NCBI GenBank assembly: GCA_903912525.1
Contig: CAIWHK010000007.1
Location: 22,563 to 86,562, forward strand
Direction of reading: 5' to 3'
Length of the DNA stretch: 64,000 nt
DNA from: an uncultured bacterium
GTDB taxonomy: Bacteria > Krumholzibacteriota > Krumholzibacteriia > LZORAL124-64-63
Made by a program: the position numbers and the translations under genes. The notes beneath the pieces are model-generated. The model was given only the letters and a program-made list of their open reading frames with translations. It searched no databases and was not told where the DNA came from. How positions within the stretch are numbered: the stretch's first letter is position 1; each line of letters starts with the position of its first letter. Below, piece after piece: positions 42,880 through 61,272 of the stretch.

Positions 42880-42909
42880 CGGGGCGCAGGTCACACCGGG
42901 CCGGCGGCG

Positions 42910-42929
42910 GACTTGCGCCGGCGCAAGTC
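42910..42929. repeat. REP-like palindrome GACTTGCGCCGGCGCAAGTC (perfect)
   Basis: Between the convergent helicase stop (42879) and MqsA-like stop (42942). Confidence 0.85.
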
Positions 42930-42941
42930 CCCGCTACTCCC

Positions 42942-43892: not shown

Positions 43893-44909
43893 TTGCTCCC
43901 CGAGATTCCCGACGGTTATCCACAACTGCTCGACGCGCTAAAGGCCCGCATCAGGGAAGCTCGGGTCCGAGCGGCTTCAAGCGTCAACAGCGAGTTGATC
44001 GCGCTCTACTGGCAGATCGGTCAGGAGATCCTTCTGCGCCAGAGGGAGGCCGGCTGGGGATCAAAGGTGGCTGACAGACTGTCAGGAGACCTTCGGAGTG
44101 CATTCCCCAACATGAGAGGCTTCTCGAAATCCAACCTCATGTATATGCGCAAGTTAGCGGCTGCGTGGCCGGCCGGGACAATTTTCCCACAGCTTGTGGG
44201 AAAATTGGCATGGGGCCACAACCGCCTCCTCCTGGACAAGGTGGGGGATCCGGCCGAACGGTGCTGGTACCTGCAGGCCGCCATCGAACACGGCTGGAGT
44301 CGCGATGTCCTCCTGCACCAGATCGAGAGCGGGCTTTGCAACCGACAAGGCAAGGCGATCACGAACTCTGAGCGGGCATTGCCACCGCTGCAATCGGAAC
44401 TCGCGCTGGGCTTGTTGAAGGACCCGTACAACCTCGAATTCCTCGACATGGGAAACGACTTCCGCGAACGCGAACTCCACCGCGGCCTGGTGCGGCACAT
44501 GCGGGACTTCCTGCTCGAATTGGGCTCCGGATTCGCGTTCGTGGGCGACGAGTACCATCTGGAGGTCGGCGGCGCTGACTTCTTCATCGACCTGCTGTTC
44601 TATCACGTCCGTTTGCATTGCTATGTCATCATTGAACTCAAGCCCGGCGAATTCCGTCCGGAACATGCCGGCAAGCTCGGCTTCTATCTTTCAGCGGTCG
44701 ATGACCTGCTGCGCCTGCCGCCGGATGGGCCCAGCATCGGGCTTGTGCTCTGCCGCGAGAAGAACCGCGTTGTGGCGGAATACGCCCTGCGCGAGATCAG
44801 CGCCCCGATGAGCGTGTCGGGCATCACACTGAAGAAGAGCCTGCCGGATGGCCTGCGTGCCAGCCTGCCGACCGTGGAGGAAATCGAATCCAGGCTGCGC
44901 GAATCGTAG
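43893..44909 (+). CDS. YhcG-family (DUF1016) PD-(D/E)XK nuclease, paralog 3
   Basis: IIELKPGEF PD-(D/E)XK motif, LAWGHNRLL, HGWSRDVLLHQI. TTG start. Contains the internal AT-rich palindrome 44181-44205. Confidence 0.75.
   Translation: MLPEIPDGYPQLLDALKARIREARVRAASSVNSELIALYWQIGQEILLRQREAGWGSKVADRLSGDLRSAFPNMRGFSKSNLMYMRKLAAAWPAGTIFPQLVGKLAWGHNRLLLDKVGDPAERCWYLQAAIEHGWSRDVLLHQIESGLCNRQGKAITNSERALPPLQSELALGLLKDPYNLEFLDMGNDFRERELHRGLVRHMRDFLLELGSGFAFVGDEYHLEVGGADFFIDLLFYHVRLHCYVIIELKPGEFRPEHAGKLGFYLSAVDDLLRLPPDGPSIGLVLCREKNRVVAEYALREISAPMSVSGITLKKSLPDGLRASLPTVEEIESRLRES
44181..44205. repeat. AT-rich palindrome ATTTTCCCACA-GCT-TGTGGGAAAAT inside the YhcG paralog 3 CDS (encodes TIFPQLVGKL)
   Basis: 11-bp arms that are exact reverse complements, in a GC-rich gene, at the codon position homologous to the palindromes in paralogs 1 and 2. 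Confidence 0.75.
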
Positions 44910-48429: not shown

Positions 48430-48545
48430 GGGTACGTCCCGTGGTCGATGGTGGCGGTGCCGGGTGTGTGAGGGCCGGTGGGGATGACAATAGTGCATTA
48501 TAACGCGTTTGGGGGTGATGGATCTACAGAAATGAGGGGGTGCGC

Positions 48546-48565
48546 CAGTTGCGCCGGCGCAAGTC
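48546..48565. repeat. REP-like palindrome CAGTTGCGCCGGCGCAAGTC
   Basis: Between the M6 protease start region and the YhcG1 stop. Confidence 0.8.
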
Positions 48566-48591
48566 CCCCGCACCGTAGTCGCAATTTATAA

Positions 48592-49690
48592 CTACCTCAG
48601 CCGCCCCCGAAACGCCCGCTGTGACTTGAGGATTTCCTGCCGCAACGCTTCCGTGTCCGGCAGCATGGTCAGGTAGCGCGAGGCAAAGACGTTGGCGGCG
48701 ATGCCGCCCATCGCGTAGTGGACGACGGCGTCGTTCTTGGCACTGCAGAGGATCAAGCCCACCGGTTCGTGTTCGTCGGGGCCCATGAGGTGTTCGCGGG
48801 CGTAGTTGAGGTAGAGGTTCATCTGGCCGGCGTCGGCGTGGCTGAACTTACCAAGCTTGAGGTCGACCACGACCAGGCAACGCAGGGCGCGGTGGTAGAG
48901 CAAGAGGTCGATGCGATACCACTCGTCGCCGATGCGGATGCGCTTCTGGCGGGCCACGAAGGTGAAGCCGGCTCCCAGTTCGAGCAGGAACGATTCAAGG
49001 TGGCGCACGATGGCGTCCTCGAGGTCGGACTCGCTGTACTCGTCCTTCAGGTCGAGGAACTCGAGGAGGTAGGGGTCGCGGATGTGGTCGCGCAGGGCGA
49101 CGGCATCCGGCGGGGATGGCTTCCTGGCGGACGTGAGCATGCGTTCGGGGTTGGACGAGGCCGAAACGCGCTCGAAGAACTGGGTGCTGATCTGCCTTTC
49201 CAGCTGCCGGACAGTCCAACCGCCGCGAATGGCTTCAGCTTCGTAGAGCGCGCGGGCCTGGGGGTCGCTGACAGACATCAGGCGGATGTAATGGGTCCAC
49301 GACAGGGGGAAGGAATGATGCATAACTGACGCATTTGCAGGCAGTTGTAATTTTACCATCACTGATGGTAAAATCTGATGACTGAGATAAAAAGATCTCA
49401 TTTTGTAAAGACTGGTCGGCGAGAACCCGCGCCCATGCTGGCGGGCCAAGTCGCGCCCCAGCCGCTGCAGCAACTCTTCCCCGTAGATGGCCCGCGGGTT
49501 TCCGTCCTGCTCGAATTCGACGATTCGCCGGCCAATCTCCCAATAGGTCGACACGATGACGCTGCTGGTCGTGCGCACCACGACGCGCCTGGCCTCGTCG
49601 ACCAGGCCGGAGATGCCGACATCAACTCACTGTAGGGCTCCGCACCAGCGGGGCCGGACATCGGCGCGGGGATCCCCGCGTCTTCAGACT
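48592..49690 (-). pseudogene. YhcG-family (DUF1016) nuclease paralog 1 with a -1 frameshift near the N-terminus
   Basis: The body 48592-49581 is intact (VVDLKLGKF PD-(D/E)XK motif). The N-terminal segment MVRKRKSEDAGIPAPMSGPAGAEPYSEL is in another frame; alignment with paralog 2 DNA shows a single-base deletion in copy 1. Contains the internal palindrome 49350-49374. Confidence 0.65.
49350..49374. repeat. AT-rich palindrome ATTTTACCATCA-C-TGATGGTAAAAT inside the YhcG paralog 1 CDS (minus-strand sense encodes QILPSVMVKLQ)
   Basis: Perfect 12+1+12 palindrome embedded in coding sequence. Confidence 0.8.
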
Positions 49691-49969
49691 TTCGTTTCCT
49701 GACCATGATTCCCGTCCCAATCTGCCGGATGTGCCGACGCGGTCCTGATGCCAACGTGGGTTCACGGATGCGGCGCGACGTGTCGCGGACGATATGCGCC
49801 TGCGGGACAACGTCGTGGCGAAGGTGCTGTCTGCGACGAACCGCACGCAGGGCACCAAACGGGCCGTTCCTGTGGAGTTGCACGGGTTGCGCGATGACGC
49901 CAATGGGGCAGCCACGCACGCATTCGCGGTGGCTATAGGGCAGGCGGCGGGCCAGATGGTGAATGAGGC

Positions 49970-49989
49970 AACTTGCGCCGGCGCAAGTC
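49970..49989. repeat. REP-like palindrome AACTTGCGCCGGCGCAAGTC
   Basis: Cassette array; followed 45 bp later by the AT-palindrome 50027-50060. Confidence 0.8.
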
Positions 49990-50026
49990 GGGCCCGTTAC
50001 CGGGCAACTGATTGCTGTTTTGCGAC

Positions 50027-50060
50027 TTGGAATTCTGCCAACAGTGTTGGCAGAATTGGG
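50027..50060. repeat. AT-palindrome family copy TTGGAATTCTGCCAACAGTGTTGGCAGAATTGGG (intergenic remnant, 45 bp downstream of REP 49970)
   Basis: Perfect 11+1+11 core with family-conserved flanks TTGGAATT...AATTGGGCAA. Minus-strand translation RFFAVLPNSANTVGRIPS resembles a YhcG N-domain segment. Confidence 0.75.
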
Positions 50061-50200
50061 CAATACAGCAAAAAATCGCTCATTGGGTGGGTCGCGCAAA
50101 GCTGGTGTCCCCACCGATCTCTCCTTCCCCCAGGGAGAATTCAGCCTGGTATTAGCCGTATCGCAGTATGAATGTCCTCCGCGCTTGTCCGCCGAGGCTC

Positions 50201-50220
50201 GAGTTGCGCCGGCGCAAGTC
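50201..50220. repeat. REP-like palindrome GAGTTGCGCCGGCGCAAGTC
   Basis: Cassette array; upstream of the HTH-ImmA gene. Confidence 0.8.
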
Positions 50221-50256
50221 CTGACGCTACGACCGCCCCGCATGGGCGTGTATTCT

Positions 50257-50277
50257 GATAAACCTTTTAGGTTAATC
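50257..50277. promoter_or_regulatory. 21-bp near-perfect palindrome GATAAACCTTTTAGGTTAATC about 75 bp upstream of the HTH-ImmA gene; candidate operator
   Basis: Inverted repeat AACCT-TTT-AGGTT with symmetric flanks, in an AT-rich promoter-like stretch. Confidence 0.35.
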
Positions 50278-50351
50278 TTTCTTGGCGGCGATATCCGATC
50301 TGCATATACTCATTGAAGGCCGTACCTGCCTGGACTTCATCGGGGACTACC

Positions 50352-51434
50352 ATGACTGACACCCACGCATTCACGCCAAACTGGGCCTCTCCCCCCGGCA
50401 GTACGATTGCCGACCTGCTGGCCGAGCGCAGCCTGACCCAGGCGGACCTTGCCGACCGCACCGGCTACACGCGCAAGCACATCAACGAACTGGTGCGCGG
50501 CCGCGCGGCGATTTCGTTCGAAGCGGCCCTGAAGCTGGAGACCGTGCTGGGCTCGACGGCCGACTTCTGGATGCGCCGCGAAGTGCAGTACCGCGAGGCG
50601 CTGGCACGGCAGGAGCTCAACCGGCAGTTCAAGGCCTCGGCGCCCTGGCTCAGGCGGATTCCACTGGCAAGCATGGTGCGGCTCGGGTGGGTGGAGCGGT
50701 TCCCTGATTCCGGGCAGCAGGTGGCCGCCTGCCTGCGGTATTTCGGCGTGGCCACGGTCGAGGCCTGGGAAGCGACGTACGCGGAACCCCTGGCGGCCTT
50801 CCGCAGGTCACCCAACGCCGAGACGGCCGGCGCGGCGGCCGCAGCCTGGCTGCGACAGGGCGAACTGCAGGCGGCCGCCATCCGGACCGGGGACTACAGC
50901 GCGTCCGGGTTGCGCGCGTGCCTGCCCCGACTGCGGCAGCTCACGCTGCTCACCGACCCCGACGCATTCGTACCCGCACTGACCGGCATGTGCGCGGAAG
51001 TGGGCATCGCCGTCGTGTTCGTGCCCACGCCGCAGGGATGTCCCGCCTACGGCGCCACGCGGTGGCTCTCTCCCACCAAGGCGCTGCTGATGCTCAGCAA
51101 CCGCACCAAGACCCACGATGTGCTGTGGTTCACCTTCTTCCATGAGATCTGCCACCTGCTGCACCACAGCAAGAAGATGACCGTCATCGAGGGCGGCCGG
51201 AGCCTGGACGCCGGCCTCGAGGAAGAGGCCGACACGTTTGCCGCCCACATCCTGATTCCGCCGGCGGACGCGCGCCGCATCGAGGAATTGCCCCGCAACG
51301 CGGATGCCATTGCTTCGTTCGCCCGTGAGATCGGGGTTGCGCCGGGGATCGTGCTGGGGCGGATGCAGAAGATGGGGCTGATCGGCTGGTCCAGGTGTGG
51401 GGAGTTGAAGGTCAGGTATGAGATCGGCGGGTGA
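50352..51434 (+). CDS. Xre-type HTH fused to ImmA/IrrE-family (COG2856) metallopeptidase domain (HigA2/ImmA-like)
   Basis: N-terminal HTH (LTQADLADRTGYTRKHINELVRG); C-terminal FFHEICHLLHH HExxH motif typical of ImmA/IrrE. Confidence 0.75.
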   Translation: MTDTHAFTPNWASPPGSTIADLLAERSLTQADLADRTGYTRKHINELVRGRAAISFEAALKLETVLGSTADFWMRREVQYREALARQELNRQFKASAPWLRRIPLASMVRLGWVERFPDSGQQVAACLRYFGVATVEAWEATYAEPLAAFRRSPNAETAGAAAAAWLRQGELQAAAIRTGDYSASGLRACLPRLRQLTLLTDPDAFVPALTGMCAEVGIAVVFVPTPQGCPAYGATRWLSPTKALLMLSNRTKTHDVLWFTFFHEICHLLHHSKKMTVIEGGRSLDAGLEEEADTFAAHILIPPADARRIEELPRNADAIASFAREIGVAPGIVLGRMQKMGLIGWSRCGELKVRYEIGG

Positions 51435-51440
51435 CCTGGC

Positions 51441-51460
51441 CACTTGCGCCGGCGCAAGTC
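51441..51460. repeat. REP-like palindrome CACTTGCGCCGGCGCAAGTC
   Basis: 7 bp after the ImmA stop; followed by the AT-palindrome 51497-51530. Confidence 0.8.
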
Positions 51461-51496
51461 CGGCCGGATCGCGCCTAAGCGATTGATTTCCCGCTC

Positions 51497-51530
51497 TTTG
51501 GAATTTTATCATCACTGATGAGAATATTGG
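51497..51530. repeat. AT-palindrome family copy TTGGAATTTTATCATCACTGATGAGAATATTGGG
   Basis: Imperfect arms (2 mismatches); 37 bp downstream of REP 51441. Confidence 0.7.
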
Positions 51531-51546
51531 GCAACGCCGGCAGGCC

Positions 51547-52182
51547 CTACCGATAGCAGTCATGGAACCACTCGGGTCCAAGCCGGATGAACGTGTTCAC
51601 GGCAGCCGCGAGTCTCGCACCGGGCGCCGCACTGGCCGCCAGGACCCTCTTGCCATGCGCCCGCACAGCATCGACGGCTGGCGTGAAGTCGCCATCGGCC
51701 GACAGCAGGTACGCGGTATCGAATTCGTCGCGCTCGGCCATCACGACCATGTCGACGGCCAGAAAGACATCAACGGCTTTTTCGACATAGGCCGTGGCAC
51801 GCATGTTCCGCCGCGCGATGTCATACAGGTCCCGGTAAACCTGCTGGTCGATGCGCGTGGACAATGTCGTGAGATAGTCCTTGAGTTCCCTGGCCGCGTT
51901 GTCAGTCACCGGGCGTGACTCGAGGCGCCCGAAGTGCACGCTGATCTTCGGCGACGATGCCCTGAGAGCGGCAATGAACCTGCGCTGGGCCGCATAGAGT
52001 GCCAGACTGCTTCGTTGCTCGACCTGGCCTACGTAGTACCTGGTGGCGCACCACTGCCGCGGCCCGACGAGCTTGCGCGAAATCACCCCATAGTCGAGCC
52101 GACCCAAGTCGGCGATGCCATGCTGCTTGGCGCCGTGATACCAGTTGTTGCCATCGATGAAGAGCACTGCGCGTTCAGCCAC
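51547..52182 (-). CDS. NYN-domain (LabA-like) predicted RNase
   Basis: VLFIDGNNWYH and VDVFLAVDMVVMAERDEFDTAYLLSADGDF motifs. Probable GTG start. A deleted version of this cassette is present at 55110-55320. Confidence 0.6.
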   Translation of the reverse strand: MAERAVLFIDGNNWYHGAKQHGIADLGRLDYGVISRKLVGPRQWCATRYYVGQVEQRSSLALYAAQRRFIAALRASSPKISVHFGRLESRPVTDNAARELKDYLTTLSTRIDQQVYRDLYDIARRNMRATAYVEKAVDVFLAVDMVVMAERDEFDTAYLLSADGDFTPAVDAVRAHGKRVLAASAAPGARLAAAVNTFIRLGPEWFHDCYR

Positions 52183-52194
52183 GGCGCCGACCCA

Positions 52195-52236
52195 AAAGAA
52201 AAACCCCGGCGTGTGGCTGAGCCAGACCCCGGGGGG
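52195..52236 (-). terminator. Terminator-like hairpin plus T-run (minus strand) immediately upstream of the NYN gene; same element as 55215-55260
   Basis: CCCCGG-cgtgtggctgagccagac-CCGGGG stem followed on the minus strand by TTTTTCTTTT. Confidence 0.35.
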
Positions 52237-52675
52237 ATAAAACACCCGGTCCCGTGGGATCCGAGCGACCCGCAGTATACACAGGGCTGGGCTGCCGTGT
52301 CAACTGCAGTGGCGAAGCGCTAAAGAAGAGCCCTCCGGGGCGCCACCAGAAGGGGGTCAACCGGCTCAGCAAGCCGGGCTGGGGTTGATACGCATTCAGT
52401 TGCGATCTGATCGCGGGGCGGGTCAAGGGCGATTCCCTCTTTGGCGCTGGAGTGGGCCGGCGCGGTCGAGAATGCAAGGACCCCGCCCGGCGGCGTCCTT
52501 GTCGCTGCGCCAGTGCACAAGTAGTCGCGCAACTGCCGCGTCGTTTGCGCGTCATGACGGCCAAGTTCCGAAAGCCCCCGGGCGAGGTGCCATGCACCTT
52601 GCGAGCCCACCGCAAATACATGTCATGCTCCGTTGACAGCTTCATGGGAGATGGCGCCCGCCGTCTTCACTTGCC

Positions 52676-52695
52676 GACTTGCGCCGGCGCAAGTT
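52676..52695. repeat. REP-like palindrome GACTTGCGCCGGCGCAAGTT
   Basis: 14 bp downstream of the YhcG2 stop. Confidence 0.8.
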
Positions 52696-52708
52696 CCCTA
52701 CCCCCACG

Positions 52709-53824
52709 TCAGCGCAACCGCCCCAGAAACGCCCTCTGCGTCCGAATGATCTCCTGCCGCAGCGACTCCGTGTCCGGCAGCACCGTCAGGTAGCGCGAGG
52801 CGAAGACGTTCGCGGCGATGCCGCCCATCGCGTAGTGGACGACGGCGTCGTTCTTCGCGCTGCAGAGAATCAAGCCCACCGGCTCGTGCTCGTCGGGGCC
52901 CATGAGGTGCTCGCGCGCGTAGTTGAGGTAGAGGTTCATCTGGCCGGCGTCGGCGTGCGTGAACTTGCCGAGCTTGAGGTCGACCACGACCAGGCAGCGC
53001 AGCGCGCGGTGGTAGAGCAAGAGGTCGATGCGGTACCACTCGTCGCCGATGCGGATGCGCTTCTGCCTCGCCACGAACGTGAAGCCGGCGCCCAGTTCGA
53101 GCAGGAACGATTCGAGGTGGCGGACGATGGCGTCCTCGAGATCGGACTCGCTGTACTCATCCTTCAGGTCGAGGAACTCGAGGAGGTACGGGTCGCGGAT
53201 GTGGTGCTGCAGTTCGGCGGGGTCGACAGGCGCGGGCTTGCGCGCGGCGGCGAGCATGCGGTCGGGGTTGGCGGACGCGGTGACGCGCTCGAAGAACTGC
53301 GTGCTGATCTGGCGGTCGAGCTGGCGGACGGACCAGCCGGAGCGGATAGCTTCGGATTCGTAGAGGGTGCGGGCGGCGTGGTTTTCGACGGACATCAGAC
53401 GGACGTAATGTGACCACGAAAGGGGGAAGGAAATGGGCGTAACTGACGACTCATCAAGTGTTTGTAATTTTCTCGACACTGTCGAGAATATCTGCAATTC
53501 CAGATAAAAACATCTCATTTTGTAAAGTCCCGGCCTGGAGAATCCCCTGCCGTATCGGCTGGACAGATCGCGCCCCAGACGCGTGAGCAACTCTTCGCCA
53601 TACTCGGCGCGGACACGCCCACCCTGTTCATATTCGACGATTCGGCGTCCGATTTCCCAGTACGCCGACACGACGACGCTTTGCGTCGATCGCACGACAG
53701 AGCGCCGGGCCTCTTCCAGTAGGCCGGAGATTCCCGTCACCAGTTCTCCGTAGGGCTCCGCGCCGGATGCACCGGACGTCGGTGCGGGGACCCTCGCGTC
53801 CCGAGGCTTTCGATTCCTGGCCAT
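52709..53824 (-). CDS. YhcG-family (DUF1016) nuclease, paralog 2 (intact)
   Basis: About 88% protein identity to paralog 1 across the body; contains the internal palindrome 53467-53492. Confidence 0.7.
   Translation of the reverse strand: MARNRKPRDARVPAPTSGASGAEPYGELVTGISGLLEEARRSVVRSTQSVVVSAYWEIGRRIVEYEQGGRVRAEYGEELLTRLGRDLSSRYGRGFSRPGLYKMRCFYLELQIFSTVSRKLQTLDESSVTPISFPLSWSHYVRLMSVENHAARTLYESEAIRSGWSVRQLDRQISTQFFERVTASANPDRMLAAARKPAPVDPAELQHHIRDPYLLEFLDLKDEYSESDLEDAIVRHLESFLLELGAGFTFVARQKRIRIGDEWYRIDLLLYHRALRCLVVVDLKLGKFTHADAGQMNLYLNYAREHLMGPDEHEPVGLILCSAKNDAVVHYAMGGIAANVFASRYLTVLPDTESLRQEIIRTQRAFLGRLR
53467..53492. repeat. AT-rich palindrome AATTTTCTCGACA-C-TGTCGAGAATAT inside the YhcG paralog 2 CDS (sense encodes QIFSTVSRKLQ)
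   Basis: 1 arm mismatch; same codon position as in paralogs 1 and 3 but a different half-site sequence. Confidence 0.8.
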
Positions 53825-54087
53825 GCTTCCCATTCCCATCTGCCGGATGTACCGACGCGGTCCAGATGCCAACGAGAGTTCACGGAAGAGGCGCGATGTG
53901 TCGCGGGTGATGGGCGCCTGCGGTGCGACGTCGGGGATGAATCATTGCCGACGACAAACCACATTCGCGGCGCCAATCGAGCCTTTCCTAGGGAGATGCC
54001 GGCGCTGGGCGGCGGCGCCGATTAGGCGGCCACGCACACACAGCGATGGCCATTGAGGCAGGCGGCAGGCCAGATGGTGAACGTGGC

Positions 54088-54107
54088 GACGTGCGCCGGC
54101 GCAAGTC
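54088..54107. repeat. REP-like palindrome GACGTGCGCCGGCGCAAGTC
   Basis: Cassette array; followed by the AT-palindrome 54145-54177. Confidence 0.8.
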
Positions 54108-54144
54108 AGCCCGATTTCGGCGCAAACAGTTGTCGCGGCGTGAC

Positions 54145-54177
54145 TTGGAATTTTACCATCACTGATGGTAAAATTGG
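54145..54177. repeat. AT-palindrome family copy TTGGAATTTTACCATCACTGATGGTAAAATTGG (intergenic remnant)
   Basis: Core identical to the YhcG1 internal palindrome. Flanking 30 bp on both sides align to the YhcG1 3' end and to the YhcG1 sequence next to its palindrome, so this looks like an internally deleted yhcG copy. Confidence 0.75.
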
Positions 54178-54400
54178 CCAAAACAGAAAACAATCTCACA
54201 TCAAGCAACATCGGCACGCACTGCTGCGCGCTACCGCGAGGCCGTGAACACACATCCAATCGGTGCCGCCCTGGCGAAGAACGCGCCCCTGTGCCCACTC
54301 CTGGCGGCGCTCCCAGCCGCCCACCTCAGAACGCCGGACCAAGCAGACCGGCCGATCCGGGCACAACTGCTGCCTACAAATGGTCGCGAACCGCCGCACC

Positions 54401-54420
54401 GACTTGCGCCGGCGCAAGTC
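54401..54420. repeat. REP-like palindrome GACTTGCGCCGGCGCAAGTC (perfect)
   Basis: Cassette array; followed by the AT-palindrome 54457-54490. Confidence 0.85.
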
Positions 54421-54456
54421 GACGGCCTTCGACATAACTGGTTCCAAAACAATCAA

Positions 54457-54490
54457 TTGGAATTTTCCCGACAGTGTCGGGAAAATCTGA
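54457..54490. repeat. AT-palindrome family copy TTGGAATTTTCCCGACAGTGTCGGGAAAATCTGA, about 45 bp upstream of the AbiEi-like gene 54534
   Basis: Perfect 11+1+11 core. Confidence 0.75.
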
Positions 54491-54533
54491 CGGCAGGCAC
54501 AGCCCTGCACATAACTAAATCTTGGGTTAAGTT

Positions 54534-55127
54534 TTGTGCATGGACACCAAGACACAAAGCCACCGCGCCGGCCCCAGCTGGGACCAGCTCTACGAAACCG
54601 CTGCCGCCCAGGCCGGCCACTTCACGACGGCCCAGGCCGAGGCCGCGGGGTACTCGCCCCAGCTGCTGGCCAAGTACCTGGCCAACGGGCGTGTGGTCAG
54701 GGTGCGTCGCGGCGTGTACCGCCTCACCCATTTTCCGGCGGGCGAACTCGAGGAGTTCGCCGTCGTGTGGCTGTGGAGCGAGCGGGCCGGGGTCTTTTCG
54801 CATGAGACGGCGCTGTTTCTGCATGGGCTGTCCGATGCGCTGCCGTCACGAGTCCACCTGACGCTGCCCGCGGATTGGCGTCGGCGAAGGCTGCGCGTAC
54901 CGGATGGCGTCGCGACGCACTTCGGCGAGGTGGCCGGTGCGGATCGCGGCTGGGTGGGCCCGGTGCCTGTGACCGCTGTTGCGCGGACGCTCGTCGATTG
55001 TGCGGAGGCCGGGGTTGCGCCGGAGATGGTGCGCGATGCCATGGAGCAGGCGATCGAGCGTGGGATGATTCGCAAGGGATCAGTGCCGCGACTTGCGCCG
55101 GCGCAAGTCCGGCCGGATCGCGCCTAA
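54534..55127 (+). CDS. AbiEi-like (COG5340) antitoxin/regulator, orphan; C-terminus encoded by a REP copy
   Basis: WDQLYETAAAQAGHFTTAQAEAAGYSPQLLAKYLANGRVVRVRRGVYRL winged-helix N-domain typical of AbiEi. The last residues LAPAQVRPDRA are translated from REP 55090-55109. Confidence 0.5.
   Translation: MCMDTKTQSHRAGPSWDQLYETAAAQAGHFTTAQAEAAGYSPQLLAKYLANGRVVRVRRGVYRLTHFPAGELEEFAVVWLWSERAGVFSHETALFLHGLSDALPSRVHLTLPADWRRRRLRVPDGVATHFGEVAGADRGWVGPVPVTAVARTLVDCAEAGVAPEMVRDAMEQAIERGMIRKGSVPRLAPAQVRPDRA
55090..55109. repeat. REP-like palindrome GACTTGCGCCGGCGCAAGTC (perfect)
   Basis: Forms the 3' end of the AbiEi-like ORF 54534-55127; followed by the AT-palindrome 55147-55180. Confidence 0.85.
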
Positions 55128-55145
55128 GCGATTGATTTTCCGCGC

Positions 55146-55320
55146 CTTGGAATTTTATCATCACTGATGAGAATATTGGGCAAAGCCGATCAGGTCCTGG
55201 CGATATCAGCAATGGAACCACTCGAGGCCAAAAGAAAAACCCCGGCGTGTGGCCAAGCCAGACCCCGGGGGGATTAAGGTGCCCGGTCCCGTGGAATCCG
55301 AGCGGCTGTAAGTATAGCCG
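55146..55320. other. Deletion derivative of the 51441-52300 cassette: REP, AT-palindrome, about 25 bp of NYN 3' end, then the terminator hairpin; the NYN ORF is precisely missing
   Basis: 55090-55205 aligns to 51441-51565 and 55206-55320 aligns to 52190-52300, with about 640 bp absent in between. Confidence 0.6.
55147..55180. repeat. AT-palindrome family copy TTGGAATTTTATCATCACTGATGAGAATATTGGG (duplicate of 51497-51530)
   Basis: Part of the duplicated cassette 55090-55320. Confidence 0.7.
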
Positions 55321-55357
55321 ATGCCCAAATGCCGCAGCAACTCCCACCGCCGACTGA

Positions 55358-56152
55358 TCACACATCGCCTTCCTCCACGCCCCCCACCAGTCCCACCGGC
55401 ACGATCAACCGCCACCTGCGGACGAGTCGGCCTCCGCGCGCGCGGTCGAGGTGCACCGGCTGGGCCGGCAGCAGCGACTGCAGGCTGGCCAGGGTCGCGT
55501 CGGGCACGGCCAGTTCGCGCTGGCGGGTGTCGAGCAAGAAGCCGACCCTCGACGCGAGCGTGCGGTTGGCGAGGACGCGGACGTACGCGAGCAGCGCGTC
55601 CGGGTCGATGGCCGGGATCGCCATCAGCGAGCGCCACACCTCGTCGAGGCCGCCGGCAATCGATGGCCGGTCGAGAACGTCGGCCACCGTGCGCTCGAGG
55701 CTGGTCACGCGCACTTCGAGTCCATTGCGGTCCAGGACGTCGATCCACGCCTGCTGCGGGTGGCGCGCGCGCAACTCGCACCGCGGCTGCACCGGCGACA
55801 GGCGGCGGCCCCGGAACGTGGCGGCACGGGCTCGCGTCCAGGTGATGAACGTGAAATTGTCGGACAGGCTCTGCGCACAACCGTGCGCCTCGAGCGCCGT
55901 GTGGTAGGCGGCGGCCGCGTCCGGCGCCATGCGGGCGGCCAGCGCGATGTAATCGGGGGTTGGCTCCCAGGGCTCCGTTGACCCCGGCGGACGACCGACA
56001 TACAGGCCGCTCTTCACGCGCAGCAACCGGCCCTGGCGTACCCAGCGGGCGAGGTGGGCATCGACGGTGGCAGGAGCGCGACCGGGGAGCGCGGCGATCA
56101 GCTCGTCGCGGGTGAAGAGCGGGGTCGTGGCCAGGAAGTGGTCCGGCTTCAT
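55358..56152 (-). CDS. AbiEi-like (COG5340) antitoxin/regulator, orphan
   Basis: MKPDHFLATTPLFTRDELIAALPGRAPATVDAHLARWVRQGRLLRVKSGLYV N-domain typical of the family; GGGAGG RBS. Confidence 0.5.
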   Translation of the reverse strand: MKPDHFLATTPLFTRDELIAALPGRAPATVDAHLARWVRQGRLLRVKSGLYVGRPPGSTEPWEPTPDYIALAARMAPDAAAAYHTALEAHGCAQSLSDNFTFITWTRARAATFRGRRLSPVQPRCELRARHPQQAWIDVLDRNGLEVRVTSLERTVADVLDRPSIAGGLDEVWRSLMAIPAIDPDALLAYVRVLANRTLASRVGFLLDTRQRELAVPDATLASLQSLLPAQPVHLDRARGGRLVRRWRLIVPVGLVGGVEEGDV

Positions 56153-56162
56153 GTTAGTGCCT

Positions 56163-56194
56163 CCCAATATTTGCAATTTATTACAAATTATGGG
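56163..56194. promoter_or_regulatory. Imperfect 32-bp palindrome CCCAATATTTGCAATTTATTACAAATTATGGG overlapping RBS/5' UTR of the AbiEi-like gene 55358-56152; candidate autoregulatory operator
   Basis: Inverted repeat immediately upstream of the start codon. AbiEi proteins are known to autoregulate through inverted repeats. Confidence 0.35.
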
Positions 56195-56294
56195 CGTCTA
56201 CAACAACGGTGTCGCATGGCCGACCAGCCGCCGGTCCCGGTTGCAGGGCGCCGCCACGAAACACAACGGGCCCCAGTAGGAGCCCAGGGCCTGC

Positions 56295-56314
56295 GACTTG
56301 CGCCGGCGCAAGTC
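56295..56314. repeat. REP-like palindrome GACTTGCGCCGGCGCAAGTC (perfect); last copy in the window
   Basis: Followed by the AT-palindrome 56351-56384. No copies are found in the lower-GC island beyond 56.7 kb. Confidence 0.85.
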
Positions 56315-56350
56315 CCCCCAAACGCAGCATAAACGACGACTCTTCAGCCG

Positions 56351-56384
56351 TTTGTAATTCTCCCGACAGTGTCGAGAGAATTGG
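56351..56384. repeat. AT-palindrome family copy TTTGTAATTCTCCCGACAGTGTCGAGAGAATTGG
   Basis: 1 arm mismatch; 36 bp downstream of REP 56295. Confidence 0.7.
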
Positions 56385-56499
56385 ACCATACCGAAAGAAA
56401 TCCCACCCAGCCCACCTCGGCCGCGCCAGCTCGCTCCGCCGGCCACCACCACCCGGCCCGGCGAGCCCAGCGCACCCTGGCCGCACCCCCACCCACCAC

Positions 56500-56700
56500 A
56501 ACCGCAGCACCTGACGAGGCCCCCCCGACCCGGACGCGTTCGGGCCCGCCCTGGCCGGCAGGTGCGCGGAGGTGGGCGTCGCCGTCGTGATCGTGCCCGC
56601 GCCGCAGGGGTGTCCGGCGGGCGGGGCCTCGCGGTGGCTGGCACGCGCCAGGGCGCTGGTGATGGCTGGTGGCCGGACCAGGAGCGGCGTCATGTCGTAA
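56500..56700 (+). pseudogene. Fragment of a second ImmA/IrrE-family gene
   Basis: Translation DPDAFGPALAGRCAEVGVAVVIVPAPQGCPAGGASRWL aligns to DPDAFVPALTGMCAEVGIAVVFVPTPQGCPAYGATRWL of the intact gene 50352-51434; the peptidase HExxH region is missing. Confidence 0.45.
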
Positions 56701-56896
56701 CACGTTCTGCCATGATTGGTTAGCTTCGCATGGTCGTCGGCCTGCTCGATCGAGAAGACCGAAATCGCTCAACTTCCCGCCCTATTGTGCCGAAGACAGA
56801 ATGCCTCTTTCGGCATCGATGGGAAGTATCGCGATTGACCGATATTCGCAGTGCGCTTGGCACCATGACCGGCCACTGCAATGAGGAGGGATGACA

Positions 56897-57235
56897 ATGC
56901 CGGCGCGTAACGCCCAACAGCGCAGCCACAGTATCTACGTCATCGAGCTCGACAAAGCAGTTCTGCAGATCAAGCGCTTTCGCGAAGCGAATCCGGGCTA
57001 CAGGGAAGGGATGCCGTGCGTCTACGTCGGGATGACTTGCCGCACGCCGGAAGAGCGCTTCAGGCAGCACATTTCCGGCTACAAGGCCGCGAGGCTCGCG
57101 CATCGATTCGGGATACGATTGAAACCACGACAATACCGAGCGTTCAATCCCATGACCAGAGCCGAGGCAAAGTACATGGAAGTCGAAAAGGCGCGACGGC
57201 TGCGCAATCGGGGATATGGAGTCTGGCAGAACTAG
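56897..57235 (+). CDS. GIY-YIG nuclease-family small protein
   Basis: SIYVIEL and VYVGMTCRTPEERFRQH resemble GIY...YIG/R/H signatures. GAGGAGGG RBS. Local GC about 58%. Confidence 0.5.
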   Translation: MPARNAQQRSHSIYVIELDKAVLQIKRFREANPGYREGMPCVYVGMTCRTPEERFRQHISGYKAARLAHRFGIRLKPRQYRAFNPMTRAEAKYMEVEKARRLRNRGYGVWQN

Positions 57236-57284
57236 GCGACAGACGCTCCGGATCCCCTGGGTCGAACCCCCATAGCCGGAACCC

Positions 57285-58850
57285 CTACTCCCGATACTTC
57301 GCCACCAAATCACACTGCACCGTCTTGTGCGTCATCCACGAGAACTTGTTGTCGAACATGAGGTAGTACTTCCCATCCGCGCGAATGGGGACCTCCATCT
57401 CCGCCGCCGTGACGACTCCCGAATCGTAGATCGCCTTTGCGGCATGCCCGTTGGACCAATTGAGATAGTTGAGTTCGTCCAGCAGCAGAATGCGAACATC
57501 GTTGCCAGTGCCGCCCTGCGCCAACATGCGCCCACAAAGCGAGTATTCGCCATACACGCTGGGGGTCAGGTTTAGCACCAAGCCTTCCGCCTCGCCGGCA
57601 GGAATGAAAACGGCCTGTGAGGTCAACGCCTCCTGCCTCAGCGGATACGGCAGGCCAGCCAACCGCGCCTGAACCTCATGAAACGCCTGCGTGTCGCTCC
57701 GCAGGTCATTCAGGTTCAGCTTCGGCAATTCTGCCTCGGTGTTGGCGATGCGTTCTTCCGCGGCCGGATGAGTCTGAAAGAAGACCTCAAATGCCGACGG
57801 ATCCCCGCCCGCGTTCTTGCGAAGGGTCTCGAACATGCTCGTCATCGCCCGCGGGTCATAGCCCATCCGGTAGAGCGTATAGATGGCCAGGAAATCGGAC
57901 TCGCGCTCGTCGTCGCGCGAATAGTCCATCTGCTGGAAGAAAGCCACCGCACCGCCAGCCTCAGTGATCATCTGGCGCCGCTTCTCGTCCCCGCCGCTCA
58001 GCAACTCGCCGCCGGCGGCGACAATGCCCGCCATGATCAGCTGATTTGTCAGGGATCGGGCGGTGTGCTTGCCAACGATGTGGCCGACTTCGTGAGCAAT
58101 GACGCCCGCCAGTTCGGCTTCGCTCGACATCTGATCAATCAGGCCGCGATAGATGAAGACCTGGCCGCCGCCCACGGTAAAGGCGTTGACAGTGCGGGAA
58201 TCGATCACCTGGAACGAATAGGCGATGTCGCGCCGGCGAGAGGCTCCGGCGATGCGCTGGCCGAGGTCATTCACGTAGGCTGTCACCAATGAGTCGGCGA
58301 GCATTGGCTCGGATTCGGTGATCATCGCTCCGTTTTGGAGTCCCATCGCAACTTCGAGATCGTCGCCAAGGATATTGAACGATGTGCCGTAGTCGTGCCG
58401 GTCGTCGTCCAGCACCTTGTCGCCGAATACGATTGCCCGCAGATCAGCCGTCTTGAATTCGGACAGCTTCCAGCCGTCCGAGGCGACGCGACACTTGAGT
58501 CGATCCTTATCGAACTTCCTGAGCATGACCGGCACGATAGTGCCATCCCGCAGATAGAGGACATCGCAGGAATCAGCAGCCGTCGTGGTGACCGAGTCGC
58601 CCACCGTGAAAGTGATCCCGAAGAGGTCCCGAAGTGCGATCTCTTTCTTGGCTTTGTCCTGCTTGGCCTTGAAGAGTAGTCGGTCCTCTTTGTAGCCGTC
58701 GAAGACCAGGCTCTCAGCATGGCCGTCCGCGAAGATGAACTGCATAGGAACTGGCGGCTCACCTGCGCAAACAGGCGCAGCTACAATGCAAGCTAGCGTC
58801 ATCGCGCCAAGAACCGCGAGAACAAAGCCAACACGAATGTGATGCATCAT
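57285..58850 (-). CDS. Secreted/membrane-anchored M48-family Zn metallopeptidase
   Basis: N-terminal hydrophobic segment MMHHIRVGFVLAVLGAMTLACIVAAPVCA; HExxH in VIAHEVGHIVGKH with a downstream E; M48-like architecture. Confidence 0.65.
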   Translation of the reverse strand: MMHHIRVGFVLAVLGAMTLACIVAAPVCAGEPPVPMQFIFADGHAESLVFDGYKEDRLLFKAKQDKAKKEIALRDLFGITFTVGDSVTTTAADSCDVLYLRDGTIVPVMLRKFDKDRLKCRVASDGWKLSEFKTADLRAIVFGDKVLDDDRHDYGTSFNILGDDLEVAMGLQNGAMITESEPMLADSLVTAYVNDLGQRIAGASRRRDIAYSFQVIDSRTVNAFTVGGGQVFIYRGLIDQMSSEAELAGVIAHEVGHIVGKHTARSLTNQLIMAGIVAAGGELLSGGDEKRRQMITEAGGAVAFFQQMDYSRDDERESDFLAIYTLYRMGYDPRAMTSMFETLRKNAGGDPSAFEVFFQTHPAAEERIANTEAELPKLNLNDLRSDTQAFHEVQARLAGLPYPLRQEALTSQAVFIPAGEAEGLVLNLTPSVYGEYSLCGRMLAQGGTGNDVRILLLDELNYLNWSNGHAAKAIYDSGVVTAAEMEVPIRADGKYYLMFDNKFSWMTHKTVQCDLVAKYRE

Positions 58851-58899
58851 ACAATTCCTTCCGTTCGTCCCGATAGGCGAACTGCTGCACTCCCAAAGA

Positions 58900-60570
58900 T
58901 TATCGCCGAAAAATCCGCATTCCAGCCTGTTCCTCAAAAGCCGCGCAAATGAGCTGCAACCGCTCCGACCTGAACTTCTCAAATGCTGCCGCAGTCCCCT
59001 TCTGCCAGACACCGCCACTGGGTCCCGCGGGGATCAGGTGACTTCGTACAACCCGCGCAAAGCGCTGCCGATTTTCGTCGCGACACGCACTCAGGTACAC
59101 GCGCGGCAACTTCATCCCGATGGCCAAATTGTCTTGCGACACCAGAAAACAGATGTTACACAAGCCGTTATATACACTGGCCGGGAAGTGAGCATGCAGT
59201 TGCCCCTTCGGGAAGATGTGGTGCCGATGCGCCACGTTTGCGTAACTCGCAATGTCTGTTGAGAGATTGATCGGCTCTCCGTTTTCCAAGTACCGCGGAC
59301 GAGATGCCGCGAGTAGGCAGAAGTAGACTCGGGTTCGGGCTGCTTTCGATGAATACTCGGCGTTTTGGATCGTCGCGATCGGATCTAGCTGGCTCTCCAG
59401 GACAAACGTCCGGGACTTGCCGCGCGCGAGATCGGCGAACAACTGGGCATCGGCGACAAGATTCTGATGATATCCGCGGCCACTGTATCGCTGCGCCACG
59501 CCAGTGGCCCAGAACCACTTCCGAATCTCCTTCCGCGCCTTTGTGTGCGGTTGACCGGGGTGGTGATAGAAGTAGGACGCCAGCGTCGCCGGCATATTGG
59601 CCGACGGCAAGTACGATTCATCGTAGACCCAGAAATGGGACCGCAGGTAGTCGACAGCGGAAAGGAATGACCGTTGATAGCGATCCCAGGTCTTTTCAAA
59701 CTGTTTGACATTGGCCTTTCCGCTATTCAATTCACGTGACCAACGCGCAGCCATTGTCTCAAGTTTCGGGGGCACACCTCTCCCGTTGGGCTTTTCGTGG
59801 ATTAGATTGAAGCCCATCAGAATCGGATCGACACCTTCGAGGCGGAACGACTTGGCGGCCAATCGCTGACGGACGTCCTCCGCCATAGCGCGAATGTCCA
59901 TTTCACCCATGATGGCGATTGCACGATCAGCGGAGGTGATGCGCATTCCTTGCGAATTGACCCTGATGAAGACCTCTCCGATTTCCTCGAGCGAGGCCTG
60001 CGCAACAGTCACGATGGGCACCGGGTAGTTCAGGATGCGGTGCCTGCAATCTGCAATTTGCTTCATCATCCAGGCCGGCTTGCCCTTCAGTCGAACTCGC
60101 CAATCAAGAGCCAGAATGTCTACAAGCGGCACTAGGTGCTTGCCAATCGGTCGACGATAGACGATCCGCTGAGAGTCTCGTTGCTCAGCCGTGGCTGCGG
60201 CGACAAAACACAGGCGCGAAAAATGAATCTCGCGGCCACGGTCATTGATTTTTGTCTCGCCAGCAAATGCCTGGTGGATGACGGACAGCCGCTGCTGACC
60301 ATCAATCACGAACCAAATCTGCTTATGGTCGGGGTCGTAGTGTGGCAGCACCGCTGACGACTGGCGGATGAGATTGGCGGCCTTACGCTCCATCTCCCAG
60401 AGGAAGATGGAACCGATCGGGATGTTCCGATAAATGGAGTCTAGCAGCTTCGCGGCCCTCCCCGCGTCCCACACGAAGTTGCGCTGGAGCTTTGGGATCG
60501 CATATCGCCTGGCGACCAACTCACGGCGCAAGGCGCCGATCCGTTTCTTCTTGATTGCCGGAGGCCTCAT
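58900..60570 (-). CDS. GmrSD-family type IV (modification-dependent) restriction endonuclease-like protein (DUF262 plus DUF1524)
   Basis: N-terminal QRNFVWDAGRAAKLLDSIYRNIPIGSIFLW and DGQQRL (ParB-like DUF262); C-terminal HRHHIFPK (His-Me finger DUF1524 motif). Confidence 0.7.
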   Translation of the reverse strand: MRPPAIKKKRIGALRRELVARRYAIPKLQRNFVWDAGRAAKLLDSIYRNIPIGSIFLWEMERKAANLIRQSSAVLPHYDPDHKQIWFVIDGQQRLSVIHQAFAGETKINDRGREIHFSRLCFVAAATAEQRDSQRIVYRRPIGKHLVPLVDILALDWRVRLKGKPAWMMKQIADCRHRILNYPVPIVTVAQASLEEIGEVFIRVNSQGMRITSADRAIAIMGEMDIRAMAEDVRQRLAAKSFRLEGVDPILMGFNLIHEKPNGRGVPPKLETMAARWSRELNSGKANVKQFEKTWDRYQRSFLSAVDYLRSHFWVYDESYLPSANMPATLASYFYHHPGQPHTKARKEIRKWFWATGVAQRYSGRGYHQNLVADAQLFADLARGKSRTFVLESQLDPIATIQNAEYSSKAARTRVYFCLLAASRPRYLENGEPINLSTDIASYANVAHRHHIFPKGQLHAHFPASVYNGLCNICFLVSQDNLAIGMKLPRVYLSACRDENRQRFARVVRSHLIPAGPSGGVWQKGTAAAFEKFRSERLQLICAAFEEQAGMRIFRR

Positions 60571-60849
60571 GACACAAGCACCTTCCAGAATTCTTGCTCA
60601 ACGCACCGTGGCATTCGACCCGATATCGCCTGAGTGGCGGCACGTCATTTGAGAAATACGCTCAAACTGGCTTACACCTAAGCCGCTTAGTTACTCATCT
60701 TACCGCGCCAACCCCACCGGCTTCAAGTCTAGCAATTCCAATGGACATCCAGATGGGGTATCCTGGCGTCCTCCTGGAACCGAACTCAATCCGATTTTGG
60801 CCTCAATCGTTGTCGGTGATGCAGACATGCGGCCCGACTGGAGAATTGG

Positions 60850-61236
60850 ATGAACAACTGTCCGTTCTGCCCACCATACGGGTTTCGAGCTATCCAAGAA
60901 TCCGAGTCCAGCCTGGCCCTGTATGACAGCTACCCCGTCTCGCCCGGCCACGCCCTCATCGTGCCCCGTCGCCACGTCCCCTCGTGGTTTGACCTCCTAG
61001 AACCGGAGCAAATCGACCTTCTAAAGTTGGCCAACCTCGTCAAAGGCCATTTAGACCTGGAACGGCACCCCATCGCCTACAACCTGGGCATAAACGACGG
61101 CCCCCAAGCCGGCCAGTCCATCCCCCACGTCCACCTGCACCTTATCCCACGCTACGCCGGCGATCAGGTTGATCCGCGGGGTGGAATTCGGCTAATCTTC
61201 CCCGAGAAGGCCAGATACTGGGAAGATGGCAAATAG
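60850..61236 (+). CDS. HIT-family (histidine triad) protein
   Basis: HVHLHLIP histidine-triad motif; CPFC zinc-binding N-terminus. Confidence 0.75.
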   Translation: MNNCPFCPPYGFRAIQESESSLALYDSYPVSPGHALIVPRRHVPSWFDLLEPEQIDLLKLANLVKGHLDLERHPIAYNLGINDGPQAGQSIPHVHLHLIPRYAGDQVDPRGGIRLIFPEKARYWEDGK

Positions 61237-61272
61237 CTGAATTCAAGCCCGATACCGATAAGGACTAGTCTA

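Follow-up and report, generated by a model that had tools for sequence, protein, structure and literature searches.

The region between 48.5 and 56.7 kb of the window (the whole stretch of 64,000 nucleotides analysed here, from an uncultured Krumholzibacteriota bacterium) is very probably a decaying phage-defence/toxin-antitoxin island driven by repetitive extragenic palindromic (REP) elements. Its gene junctions carry composite units, which on this reading are relics of a hairpin from the linker of the putative nuclease gene yhcG fused to REPs, and not the sites of a site-specific cassette system. The island would have been segmentally duplicated, trimmed and reshuffled by recombination at ordinary REPs. 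The original prediction was of an integron-like array of small toxin-antitoxin (TA) and defence-type genes, each bounded by a REP and an AT-palindrome.

The gene identifications in that prediction agreed with our Pfam, PADLOC and homology results: two yhcG genes (one frameshifted), a helix-turn-helix (HTH) ImmA/IrrE gene plus a fragment, an NYN gene plus a remnant, and two AbiEi-like genes. A third yhcG gene to the left (yhcG3), of a subtype that differs from yhcG1 and yhcG2, had been overlooked. For comparison we used seven related loci: a reference bin (L001), metagenome contigs L003-L006, counted as four distinct contigs (L007 is a near-duplicate of L003), and L056 and L096, which were reached via YhcG homologs. 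The genes of the window that concern us here are:

43893-44909, plus strand: yhcG3, intact, a member of the DUF1016/YhcG family that belongs to the E. coli-like subtype; its coding palindrome lies at 44179-44207.
48592-49760, minus strand: yhcG1, a frameshifted paralog, with the frameshift near 49617-49620.
50313-51434, plus strand: an intact gene with HTH_3 and Peptidase_M78 domains (ImmA/IrrE-type), 94.5% identical to its L056 ortholog.
51547-52245, minus strand: the NYN-domain gene (PADLOC HEC-09), assigned by Pfam and PADLOC.
52709-53872, minus strand: yhcG2, the intact paralog; its reading frame contains the AT-palindrome at 53462-53496.
54534-55127, plus strand: an AbiEi_4 antitoxin-type gene, shortened at its 3' end to 197 amino acids, with the AbiEii partner missing.
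55182-55277, minus strand: the NYN deletion remnant, made up of the 3' end GLEWFHC* (asterisk, stop codon; NYN part 55182-55227) and a terminator-like hairpin copy (55228-55277).
55358-56176, minus strand: an AbiEi-type gene with an AbiEi_4 N-terminal and an AbiEi_1 C-terminal domain, 98% identical to L001.
56419-56685, plus strand: an ImmA/IrrE gene fragment equivalent to amino acids 215-267, with 74% nucleotide identity to 50848-51092.

The Pfam scores of DUF1016_N and YhcG_C were above threshold in both yhcG1 (112.6 and 189.7 bits) and yhcG2 (125.6 and 189.2 bits), and the PADLOC candidate family PDC-S02 was matched by yhcG2 (E = 1e-128) and yhcG3 (E = 1e-142). The PADLOC matches comprised PDC-S02 three times, AbiEi twice, the HEC-09 NYN gene and a PD-Lambda-2_B/RmrA-like ImmA gene, together with a GmrSD-like gene (HEC-05/PDC-M55C) and a DpdE/ZorD-like SNF2 gene. 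Such a cluster of known and candidate defence genes is what defines a defence island, and as PADLOC assigned almost every gene to a known or candidate defence family, the locus is therefore described as a REP-riddled, partly decayed defence island.

The REP core, TTGCGCCGGCGCAA, gave 22 matches in the window at no more than one mismatch, against 0.06 expected. Nine of these lie in the island (at 48549, 49973, 50204, 51444, 52679, 54091, 54404, 55093 and 56298) and 13 elsewhere in the 64 kb, a density about 4-5 times higher in the island than outside it. Given 22 copies over 64 kb, the REP is therefore a genome-wide element that is merely denser at 48.5-56.7 kb, and it is not specific to the region. 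The copies are GC-rich perfect palindromes of 18-28 bp, with perfect stems of 9-14 bp, and most lie 2-36 nucleotides (nt) 3' of stop codons, with occasional copies within genes. The element is thus a REP in the accepted sense: short, high-copy, dispersed, palindromic and mainly intergenic near gene ends. Every perfect hairpin of at least 12 bp in the 64 kb proved to be either a REP or an AT-palindrome. Three REPs of the island are solitary:

48545-48571, strand unassigned: 30 nt 3' of the yhcG1 stop codon.
50200-50226, strand unassigned: upstream of the ImmA gene.
52675-52701, strand unassigned: 17 nt 3' of the yhcG2 stop codon.

Elsewhere in the window, REP copies fall within predicted genes at 8827-8840, 13997-14010 and 33274-33287. 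That at 13997-14010 is in-frame in a deacetylase gene, where its translated context is GTGTCAGATPRIAIVDFDVHH, and so members of this REP family can lie in coding sequence. The only REPIN-like doublet of the window (29186-29269) has its REPs 70 nt apart, at 29186 and 29256.

The AT-palindrome was found at eight sites in the island, plus a variant at 44180, where 0.02 matches were expected. There are six composite units (REP, spacer and AT-palindrome), and not the eight junction units of the original prediction, besides the three solitary REPs and two AT-palindromes that lack a REP. The layout of the composite units is invariant, with a REP, a 44-nt spacer (43 nt in U4) and the palindrome. The two elements are fixed at 57-58 nt from start to start, in place of the variable spacing of 37-60 bp that had been described. 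The units are:

49969-50061, plus strand: U1, with a perfect palindrome of 13-bp arms; the minus strand reads MSDFLLYCPILPTLLAEFQ, a yhcG linker relic.
51440-51532, plus strand: U2, between the convergent ImmA and NYN genes.
54087-54179, plus strand: U3, with a palindrome identical to the intragenic copy of yhcG1.
54400-54491, plus strand: U4, with a palindrome 97% identical over 33 nt to the intragenic palindrome of the L001 yhcG.
55089-55181, plus strand: U5, 95% identical to U2.
56294-56386, plus strand: U6, in which the minus strand reads WDFFRYGPILSTLSGELQTAEESS, compared with MRCFYLELQIFSTVSRKLQTLDESS in yhcG2.

The two AT-palindromes without a REP (49345-49379 and 53462-53496) form part of the reading frames of yhcG1 and yhcG2, which accounts for the missing REP. 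There they encode QILPSVMVKLQ and QIFSTVSRKLQ, respectively, directly after a conserved MRxFYL motif. The AT-palindrome is the DNA of a peptide motif of the I-x-Q-T-P-S-G-K type in the YhcG/DUF1016 linker, and alignment indicates that the AT-palindrome part of the composite units is a relic of this linker. The segment shared with yhcG, of about 100 nt, comprises the AT-palindrome and its two flanks, one of about 27 nt and one of 37-44 nt. It retains the MRxFYL codons, the hairpin and a 13-codon spacer, and a REP takes the place of the LSWSHY codons that come next in the gene. Read on the coding strand of yhcG, U3 gives M*DCFLFWPILPSVMVKFQ. Blastn aligned 53437-53487 in yhcG2 with 56327-56377 in U6 at 80% identity, and a unit of L005 was 81% identical to the interior of yhcG2 over 83 nt. 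In tblastn searches amino acids 128-146 of yhcG2 matched U6 orthologs with E values of 1.7e-4 and 0.005.

Beyond the window, genome-contig and metagenome scans found the composite unit in one reference bin and five short contigs only, and it is therefore lineage-specific. One REP/spacer junction is common to all 25 units in the eight loci. The relic has a home position about 340 nt upstream of yhcG in every relative, and in L001 and L096 short tandem arrays of units occupy that position. The unit alignment lacks the shared terminal repeats of a miniature inverted-repeat transposable element (MITE), having a REP at one end and the AT-palindrome at the other, although no search was aimed at target-site duplications.

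The related loci place the rearrangements at the REPs. They carry the same gene set in different arrangements. In L001 and L006 the order is yhcG, two to four units, NYN, AbiEi, the U6 ortholog and an ImmA fragment, with a single yhcG, an intact NYN gene and no AbiEi_4. In L056 the order is unit, yhcG, REP, ImmA, REP, AbiEii-AbiEi_4, REP. The clearest gain or loss event is that in which REP-ImmA-REP of L056 corresponds to one REP in L096. The left flank of this single REP resembles that of the first L056 REP and its right flank that of the second, with identity going from 90% to 99.7% across it, and the junction falls within a plain REP that has no AT-palindrome. In the window, the left REP edge of U2 is a homology breakpoint against L001, L006 and U5, as the homology of the window to L001 and L006, and that of U2 to U5, starts at left REP edges (51439-51442 and 55088). 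The AbiEi_4 gene is about 92% identical to its L056 ortholog until 11 codons before the natural stop, where it is cut short exactly at the REP of U5, and the AbiEii gene that follows the ortholog in L056 has been lost. A REP that follows AbiEi in L001 is absent from the window. An internal duplication of about 1.5 kb (48598-50083 and 52715-54201, 79% identity) spans from a REP to just beyond a unit. These alignments indicate that REP edges are the points at which gene modules were duplicated, deleted or swapped.

The pseudogenes and duplicated or deleted modules of the original prediction agree with gene modules gained and lost between repeats by crossovers at plain REPs that left cut genes, and the presence/absence comparison among relatives that it called for showed variable content (AbiEi_4 and ImmA). 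Its second suggestion, a recombination hotspot driven by the REPs and palindromes themselves, was supported for the REPs, given the homology breaks at REP edges and the difference between L056 and L096. The composite units may have arisen as follows. A REP would have landed in, or recombined with, a yhcG copy at the point where LSWSHY would follow, and recombination of this REP with the REP behind the stop codon would have removed the nuclease (3') half of yhcG. The relic left about 340 nt upstream of the next yhcG would have been multiplied along with REP-bounded segments. As a side observation, a 'hypothetical' 204-amino-acid protein annotated in L056 (4964-5653) and L096 (12969-13583) is an antisense reading of a truncated second yhcG (amino acids 1-248), a spurious call owing to the high G+C content.

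The island is not an integron-like cassette array, since its units form separate hairpins, core pairs and an integrase are lacking from the window, the genes point both ways, several of them are preceded by promoter-like sites and the junctions cut into genes. Upon folding, either strand of all six units gave two or three separate perfect hairpins and never a single imperfect stem; the original prediction, too, had described the boundary element as independent palindromes rather than an attC site. Neither strand of the six units gave an attC-type stem (R''-L''...L'-R' with extrahelical bases), and attC core pairs (RYYYAAC...GTTRRRY, 40-135 nt apart) numbered zero in the 64 kb on both strands. 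The statement that the window has no integrase was upheld, in that no integrase, transposase or REP-associated tyrosine transposase (RAYT) was found by Pfam among the window proteins (39 of the 42 predicted genes scanned, the other three being yhcG/NYN-type calls). The genes called on two related contigs, L056 and L096, likewise included no integrase or other recombinase, transposase or RAYT. The directions of the genes in the array (-,+,-,-,+,-) are mixed. Promoter-like sites, as consensus matches only, precede the ImmA (50282-50310), NYN (52303-52274) and AbiEi genes, contrary to the claim of promoter-less cassettes.

It is therefore highly improbable that the composite unit is the site of an unseen recombinase that moves single-gene cassettes. 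Gene-sized modules are indeed bracketed by repeats and their content varies, AbiEi_4 being present between U4 and U5 here but not in L001 or L006, and ImmA in L056 but not in L096. However, besides the missing recombinase, the missing attC fold and core sites, the mixed orientation, the promoter-like sites and the junctions that cut into genes, the only gain or loss that could be resolved cleanly has its junction in plain REPs that lack an AT-palindrome. Moreover, L056 and L096 separate the same genes by REPs alone.

The reading of the units as decayed yhcG duplicates, which the original prediction had named as a possible refutation of its array, was correct for the origin of the AT-palindrome part and wrong for its fate, since the hairpin has been kept rather than left to decay. 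Among the 25 units in the eight loci, recognised by at least 9 pairs, the median palindrome has 12 of 13 pairs and 10 are perfect, where 7.8 pairs would be expected from the divergence of the spacers. The spacers average only 60% identity, and the probability of 12 or more pairs is about 0.01 per unit. At the site of U6 the flanks are at least 93% identical among the window, L001, L006 and L096 (somewhat lower in L004/L005), yet both arms have changed: the orthologs have CTCCCGAC, CTGCCAAC, TTCCCGAC or TTCTCGAC, in each case opposite an arm that pairs with it, and the middle base is C in some and G in others. Hence, although the units derive from yhcG and the island is rich in pseudogenes, we consider it very unlikely that they are neutral debris without any maintenance.

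Other comparisons indicate exchange between copies. The same palindrome can be found at non-orthologous sites within a genome and also in yhcG genes of relatives. The upstream and intragenic palindromes of a given yhcG have different arms. Loops are found as reverse-complement pairs (ACT/AGT, ACC/GGT and AGC/GCT). Because the stems are Watson-Crick only, loops are inverted, arms change in concert and copies exchange, the upkeep of the hairpins points to a DNA-level process, either templated correction or short-patch gene conversion, possibly with selection.

The hairpin is a property of the yhcG family. Among 120 YhcG homologs (52-100% identity), the peptide motif (of the IFQTPSGKSE or ILQTVSAKL type) lies between MRxFY and FPLSWSHY in all 113 in which both anchors were found. 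It is about 11-13 residues long, most homologs have several copies, and the strict core pattern occurs in one to six copies in 92 of them. The central residue was P, L, V or A in 224 of 233 repeats. The sequence FQTPSGK is encoded by the hairpin TTCCAGAC-ACC-GTCTGGAA. The three yhcG genes of the window and that of E. coli K-12 all have their longest perfect hairpin at one and the same place in the protein, the boundary of the N-terminal and nuclease domains. Across the family its perfect arms are 10-15 bp and its loop 1-3 nt long. The E. coli K-12 hairpin, AAAGATTTGGCAGAC-GCT-GTCTGCCAAATCTTT, has 15-bp arms within a perfect 33-bp palindrome (AAAGATTTGGCAGACGCTGTCTGCCAAATCTTT) that encodes AKIWQTLSAKSF, and two further imperfect hairpins underlie the two upstream repeats of its three-repeat linker. 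The palindrome of yhcG3 has 13-bp arms, encodes TIFPQLVGKL and was reached by none of 200 synonymous shuffles.

The shuffle test was extended to 45 viral or prophage loci (26-59% identity, 24-65% GC), E. coli K-12 and the three window genes, which gave 39 distinct genes. The best hairpin (10-15 bp) lay directly before LSW(S/G)H and was reached by no more than 5 of 200 synonymous shuffles in 13 of the 39 genes (0/200 in 11 and 3-5/200 in two more). About 10 further genes had their best, shorter hairpin at the same place. The yhcG hairpin is thus maintained by codon choice. In multi-repeat linkers each repeat forms its own hairpin of 8-11 bp. The arms vary widely, as seen from encoded peptides such as IVQQAVAQL, IRQTPSDEF, IVSALMRQL and IANALRSQF; 9 of the 12 stem positions are variable on both sides and the ends are constant (AATT...AATT). 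A search of viral contigs for ATTNNNCAGACNNNGTCTGNNNAAT gave 42 matches, of which 41 had at least 9 of 11 pairs, the N positions being unconstrained. Matches inside yhcG homologs numbered 28 (25 in clear genes of at least 100 bits), and the other 14 were mostly intergenic. An AlphaFold2 model of the multi-repeat homolog P0054 was poor (mean pLDDT 57), with the repeat linker as its least confident, unstructured part, and no PDB sequence matched a YhcG profile.

Two observations on these genes stand apart. In two viral yhcG genes a strong palindrome lies about 40 codons earlier (L023 1651-1675 and L050 1764-1790), in the other 'IV.T.S.QL' helix of the N-terminal domain (IVSTVSTQLKQVYGK), and therefore this domain may hold two related palindrome-encoded segments. 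In two homologs of low GC content (L013 1577-1598 and L024 1580-1601) a 10-bp perfect palindrome, CTACCTATTTCGAAATAGGTAG, underlies YFEIGRRIVE, a conserved motif of the same domain. In L013 it was reached by 0 of 200 synonymous shuffles.

Extragenic copies are found in other lineages as well. In E. coli K-12 (L002, NC_000913.3 3360000-3372000) yhcG-type palindromes lie at 633-657, 8143-8237 and 8971-8995 of L002. The extragenic ones are 16 nt after the yhcG stop codon and just after gltD, and neither is annotated. They are strain-variable, being present in 3007 (post-yhcG) and 1292 (post-gltD) of 5426 complete genomes. Extragenic copies near yhcG also occur in L054 (2.7 kb upstream) and L011. 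Tandem pairs of yhcG-type hairpins were seen in non-coding DNA of phage contigs (L072 9938-9985, L080 about 3745-3805 and L011 105-166), where they are conspicuous GC-rich palindromes in low-GC genomes. The L072 and L080 stretches examined have no yhcG, and the L011 pair lies about 1.3 kb upstream of its yhcG. Three candidate roles or features were rejected. A promoter in the palindrome (TTGGAA-N18-TAAAAT), discounted as a general explanation, passed a consensus scan in only 2 of 8 copies, and E. coli-type hairpins have no such hexamers. A terminator was discounted as no T-run follows the palindromes here or in E. coli. The E. coli noncoding RNA G0-10703 overlaps the yhcG 5' untranslated region and not the hairpin.

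YhcG is an uncharacterised PD-(D/E)XK protein with a nuclease domain predicted to resemble archaeal Holliday-junction resolvases and YraN (PMC1189080). It is possible, though we think it unlikely, that the hairpin functions in cis within the YhcG system and that use preserves its extragenic copies. By analogy with resolvases, YhcG could conceivably bind or cut the cruciform or hairpin, resulting in autoregulation or in break-and-repair that converts or copies hairpins; we hold this version only tentatively. The family-wide, codon-tuned hairpin, its Watson-Crick-only stems, the predicted resolvase similarity and the extragenic copies near yhcG in unrelated lineages (the relatives, at about 340 nt upstream; E. 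coli K-12; and L054) all fit such a role. So do the relic hairpins that stay paired as their flanks drift, the arm variants common to non-orthologous sites and the flipping loops. On the other side, a given gene has different arms in its upstream and intragenic palindromes, which makes it unlikely that both are recognised strictly by sequence. About one-third of such viral-contig hairpins have no yhcG within the stretch examined, the strong hairpin is often missing in low-GC family members, and templated mutation alone might explain the maintenance.

An alternative at the RNA level is that the hairpin acts in the yhcG mRNA (pausing, processing or stability) to limit synthesis of a toxic nuclease domain, which we regard as doubtful. 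Its second part, that intergenic copies together with REPs serve as 3'-end hairpins for neighbouring genes, seems equally dubious. The fixed position at the domain boundary would suit an RNA function, as would the location of the island hairpins after stop codons: 15 nt separate the U2 palindrome from the NYN stop, and the distance from a stop to its REP is 2-36 nt. The U6 palindrome, moreover, is fully paired only on the yhcG sense strand, via a G:T pair. Against this, G:U wobble is nearly absent in 45 hairpins, sense-strand mismatches show no excess of G:T over A:C (about 5 and 9, a small sample) and hairpins are not followed by a T-run. Rfam 15 gave no match at the gathering score in the whole window and none even at E<=1 in 43.5-57 kb. 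Stems that are perfect and free of bulges, and loops that invert, are DNA-type features.

Several points weigh against the account of a REP-driven island with yhcG-linker relics. AbiEi_4 lies between U4 and U5 and has left no relic in L001 or L006, as a cassette would. No RAYT or other REP-mobilising gene was found in the proteins of the window, to which the search was confined. The shared REP/spacer junction is what a single origin with later copying would give, but a site-specific event that recurs may also be possible. The order of events given above (REP insertion, then REP-REP deletion) is reconstructed, not observed. The pairing test of the units misses any that have decayed fully, as at least 9 pairs were needed to recognise a unit. 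Internal G:U pairs made up only 3 of 360 cells in the 45 hairpins, in an alignment picked for palindromy; since these sequences were chosen as palindromic, the unbiased evidence is the synonymous-shuffle test. Finally, template-switch correction of quasipalindromes could keep the arms complementary without any function.

The island resembles several known systems in part. Like the REPs and bacterial interspersed mosaic elements (BIMEs) and the REPIN/RAYT systems of enterobacteria and Pseudomonas, its REP is a short GC-rich high-copy palindrome that follows stop codons and joins duplications and deletions. Unlike them, one REP copy here is joined, at a constant distance of 44 nt, to a hairpin that stems from a gene, and the composite itself has been multiplied; the window has no RAYT, and some REP copies are in-frame inside genes. 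The island shares with integron attC arrays small defence/TA genes that lie between palindromic repeats and vary in content among relatives, but it has no integrase, R''-L''/L'-R' stem or core sites and its crossover maps inside REPs.

The coding hairpin also has partial counterparts. Quasipalindrome template-switch mutagenesis and flip/flop hairpins are known from E. coli hotspots and the inverted terminal repeats of parvoviruses, where they are mutational or replicative and confined to single sites. The yhcG hairpins are similar in that both arms change together and loops occur as reverse-complement pairs, and they differ in that conservation of the pattern extends to an entire gene family together with its relics. 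Rpn (YhgA-like) PD-(D/E)XK nucleases reportedly have variable intragenic repeats and a gene-within-gene antitoxin (Zhong et al., PNAS 2023), and their repeats are said to be 4-residue helix units rather than DNA hairpins. YhcG is likewise a PD-(D/E)XK defence-type nuclease with short coding repeats of strain-variable number, but it belongs to a different protein family with a different domain order. Rickettsia palindromic elements (RPEs) are described, as cited in PMC4316617, as palindromes translated within protein-coding genes (Ogata et al. 2000, 2002). The yhcG hairpin, too, is an in-frame palindrome translated as a tolerated peptide insert, with copies within and between genes. In contrast to RPEs, which are said to be 100-150 bp long and to occur in many unrelated genes of one genus, it is 25-33 bp, has a fixed position in one gene family, extends to many phyla and phages and is often arrayed. 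In the full-text literature searched nothing linked YhcG or DUF1016 to a palindrome, and in a 2023 paper on programmed inversions (Nucleic Acids Research) DUF1016 figures solely as a gene next to those that invert.

Both REP-mediated rearrangement and translated palindromes are known kinds of event, and the yhcG coding hairpin is the part worth pursuing. With REPs as crossover points at which defence genes are duplicated, deleted and swapped, defence islands can become hypervariable in a simple way. The YhcG/DUF1016 nucleases form a very common family that is still uncharacterised (PADLOC candidate PDC-S02), is enriched beside restriction-modification and BREX systems and is present in E. coli K-12, where the yhcG palindrome offers a directly testable handle. 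A nuclease-hairpin pair, in which YhcG acts on the hairpin or cruciform in its own gene and on nearby copies, akin in spirit to RAYT-REP, is a tentative proposal and not the one we favour. If it were true, the action of YhcG would drive local conversion, arm swapping, loop flip-flop, expansion of linker arrays and seeding of relics, and the 33-bp E. coli K-12 palindrome would give access to the function of a widespread defence-candidate family. For annotators, repeated QTPSGK linker peptides and similar small open reading frames are a translated DNA structure.

The NYN gene and its remnant warrant separate description. The remnant is joined at CCAA, which is present at both ends of the intact NYN copy, and the 'empty NYN copy' of the original prediction is an ordinary deletion between these microhomologies. 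A terminator-like hairpin (52192-52241) and the promoter-like site at 52303-52274 lie at the 5' side of NYN. The element as a whole (52192-52303, with a copy at 55228-55306) consists of a strong promoter-like site, TTGACA-18-TATACT, with 11 of 12 consensus matches, followed by the terminator-like hairpin with a T-run immediately before NYN begins. A role as leader or attenuator is conceivable, as is one as terminator of the upstream AbiEi gene, which is the case in L001 and L006.

Defence-type genes also lie outside 48.5-56.7 kb. Just upstream of yhcG3, 39400-43547 holds the DpdE/ZorD-like SNF2 helicase (1159 amino acids) and a 201-amino-acid protein without a Pfam match, and the defence island therefore reaches left of the reported region. 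An AbiEii toxin gene at 30164-31081 belongs to a separate AbiE-type locus (29400-31081), away from the two orphan AbiEi genes. To the right, G+C content falls from about 65% to 55-60% in 56700-64000, where a second set of defence-type genes comprises a weak GIY-YIG open reading frame, an M48 peptidase, the GmrSD-like gene (HEC-05/PDC-M55C), a HIT protein and a PLD + ResIII helicase. This part was probably acquired separately.

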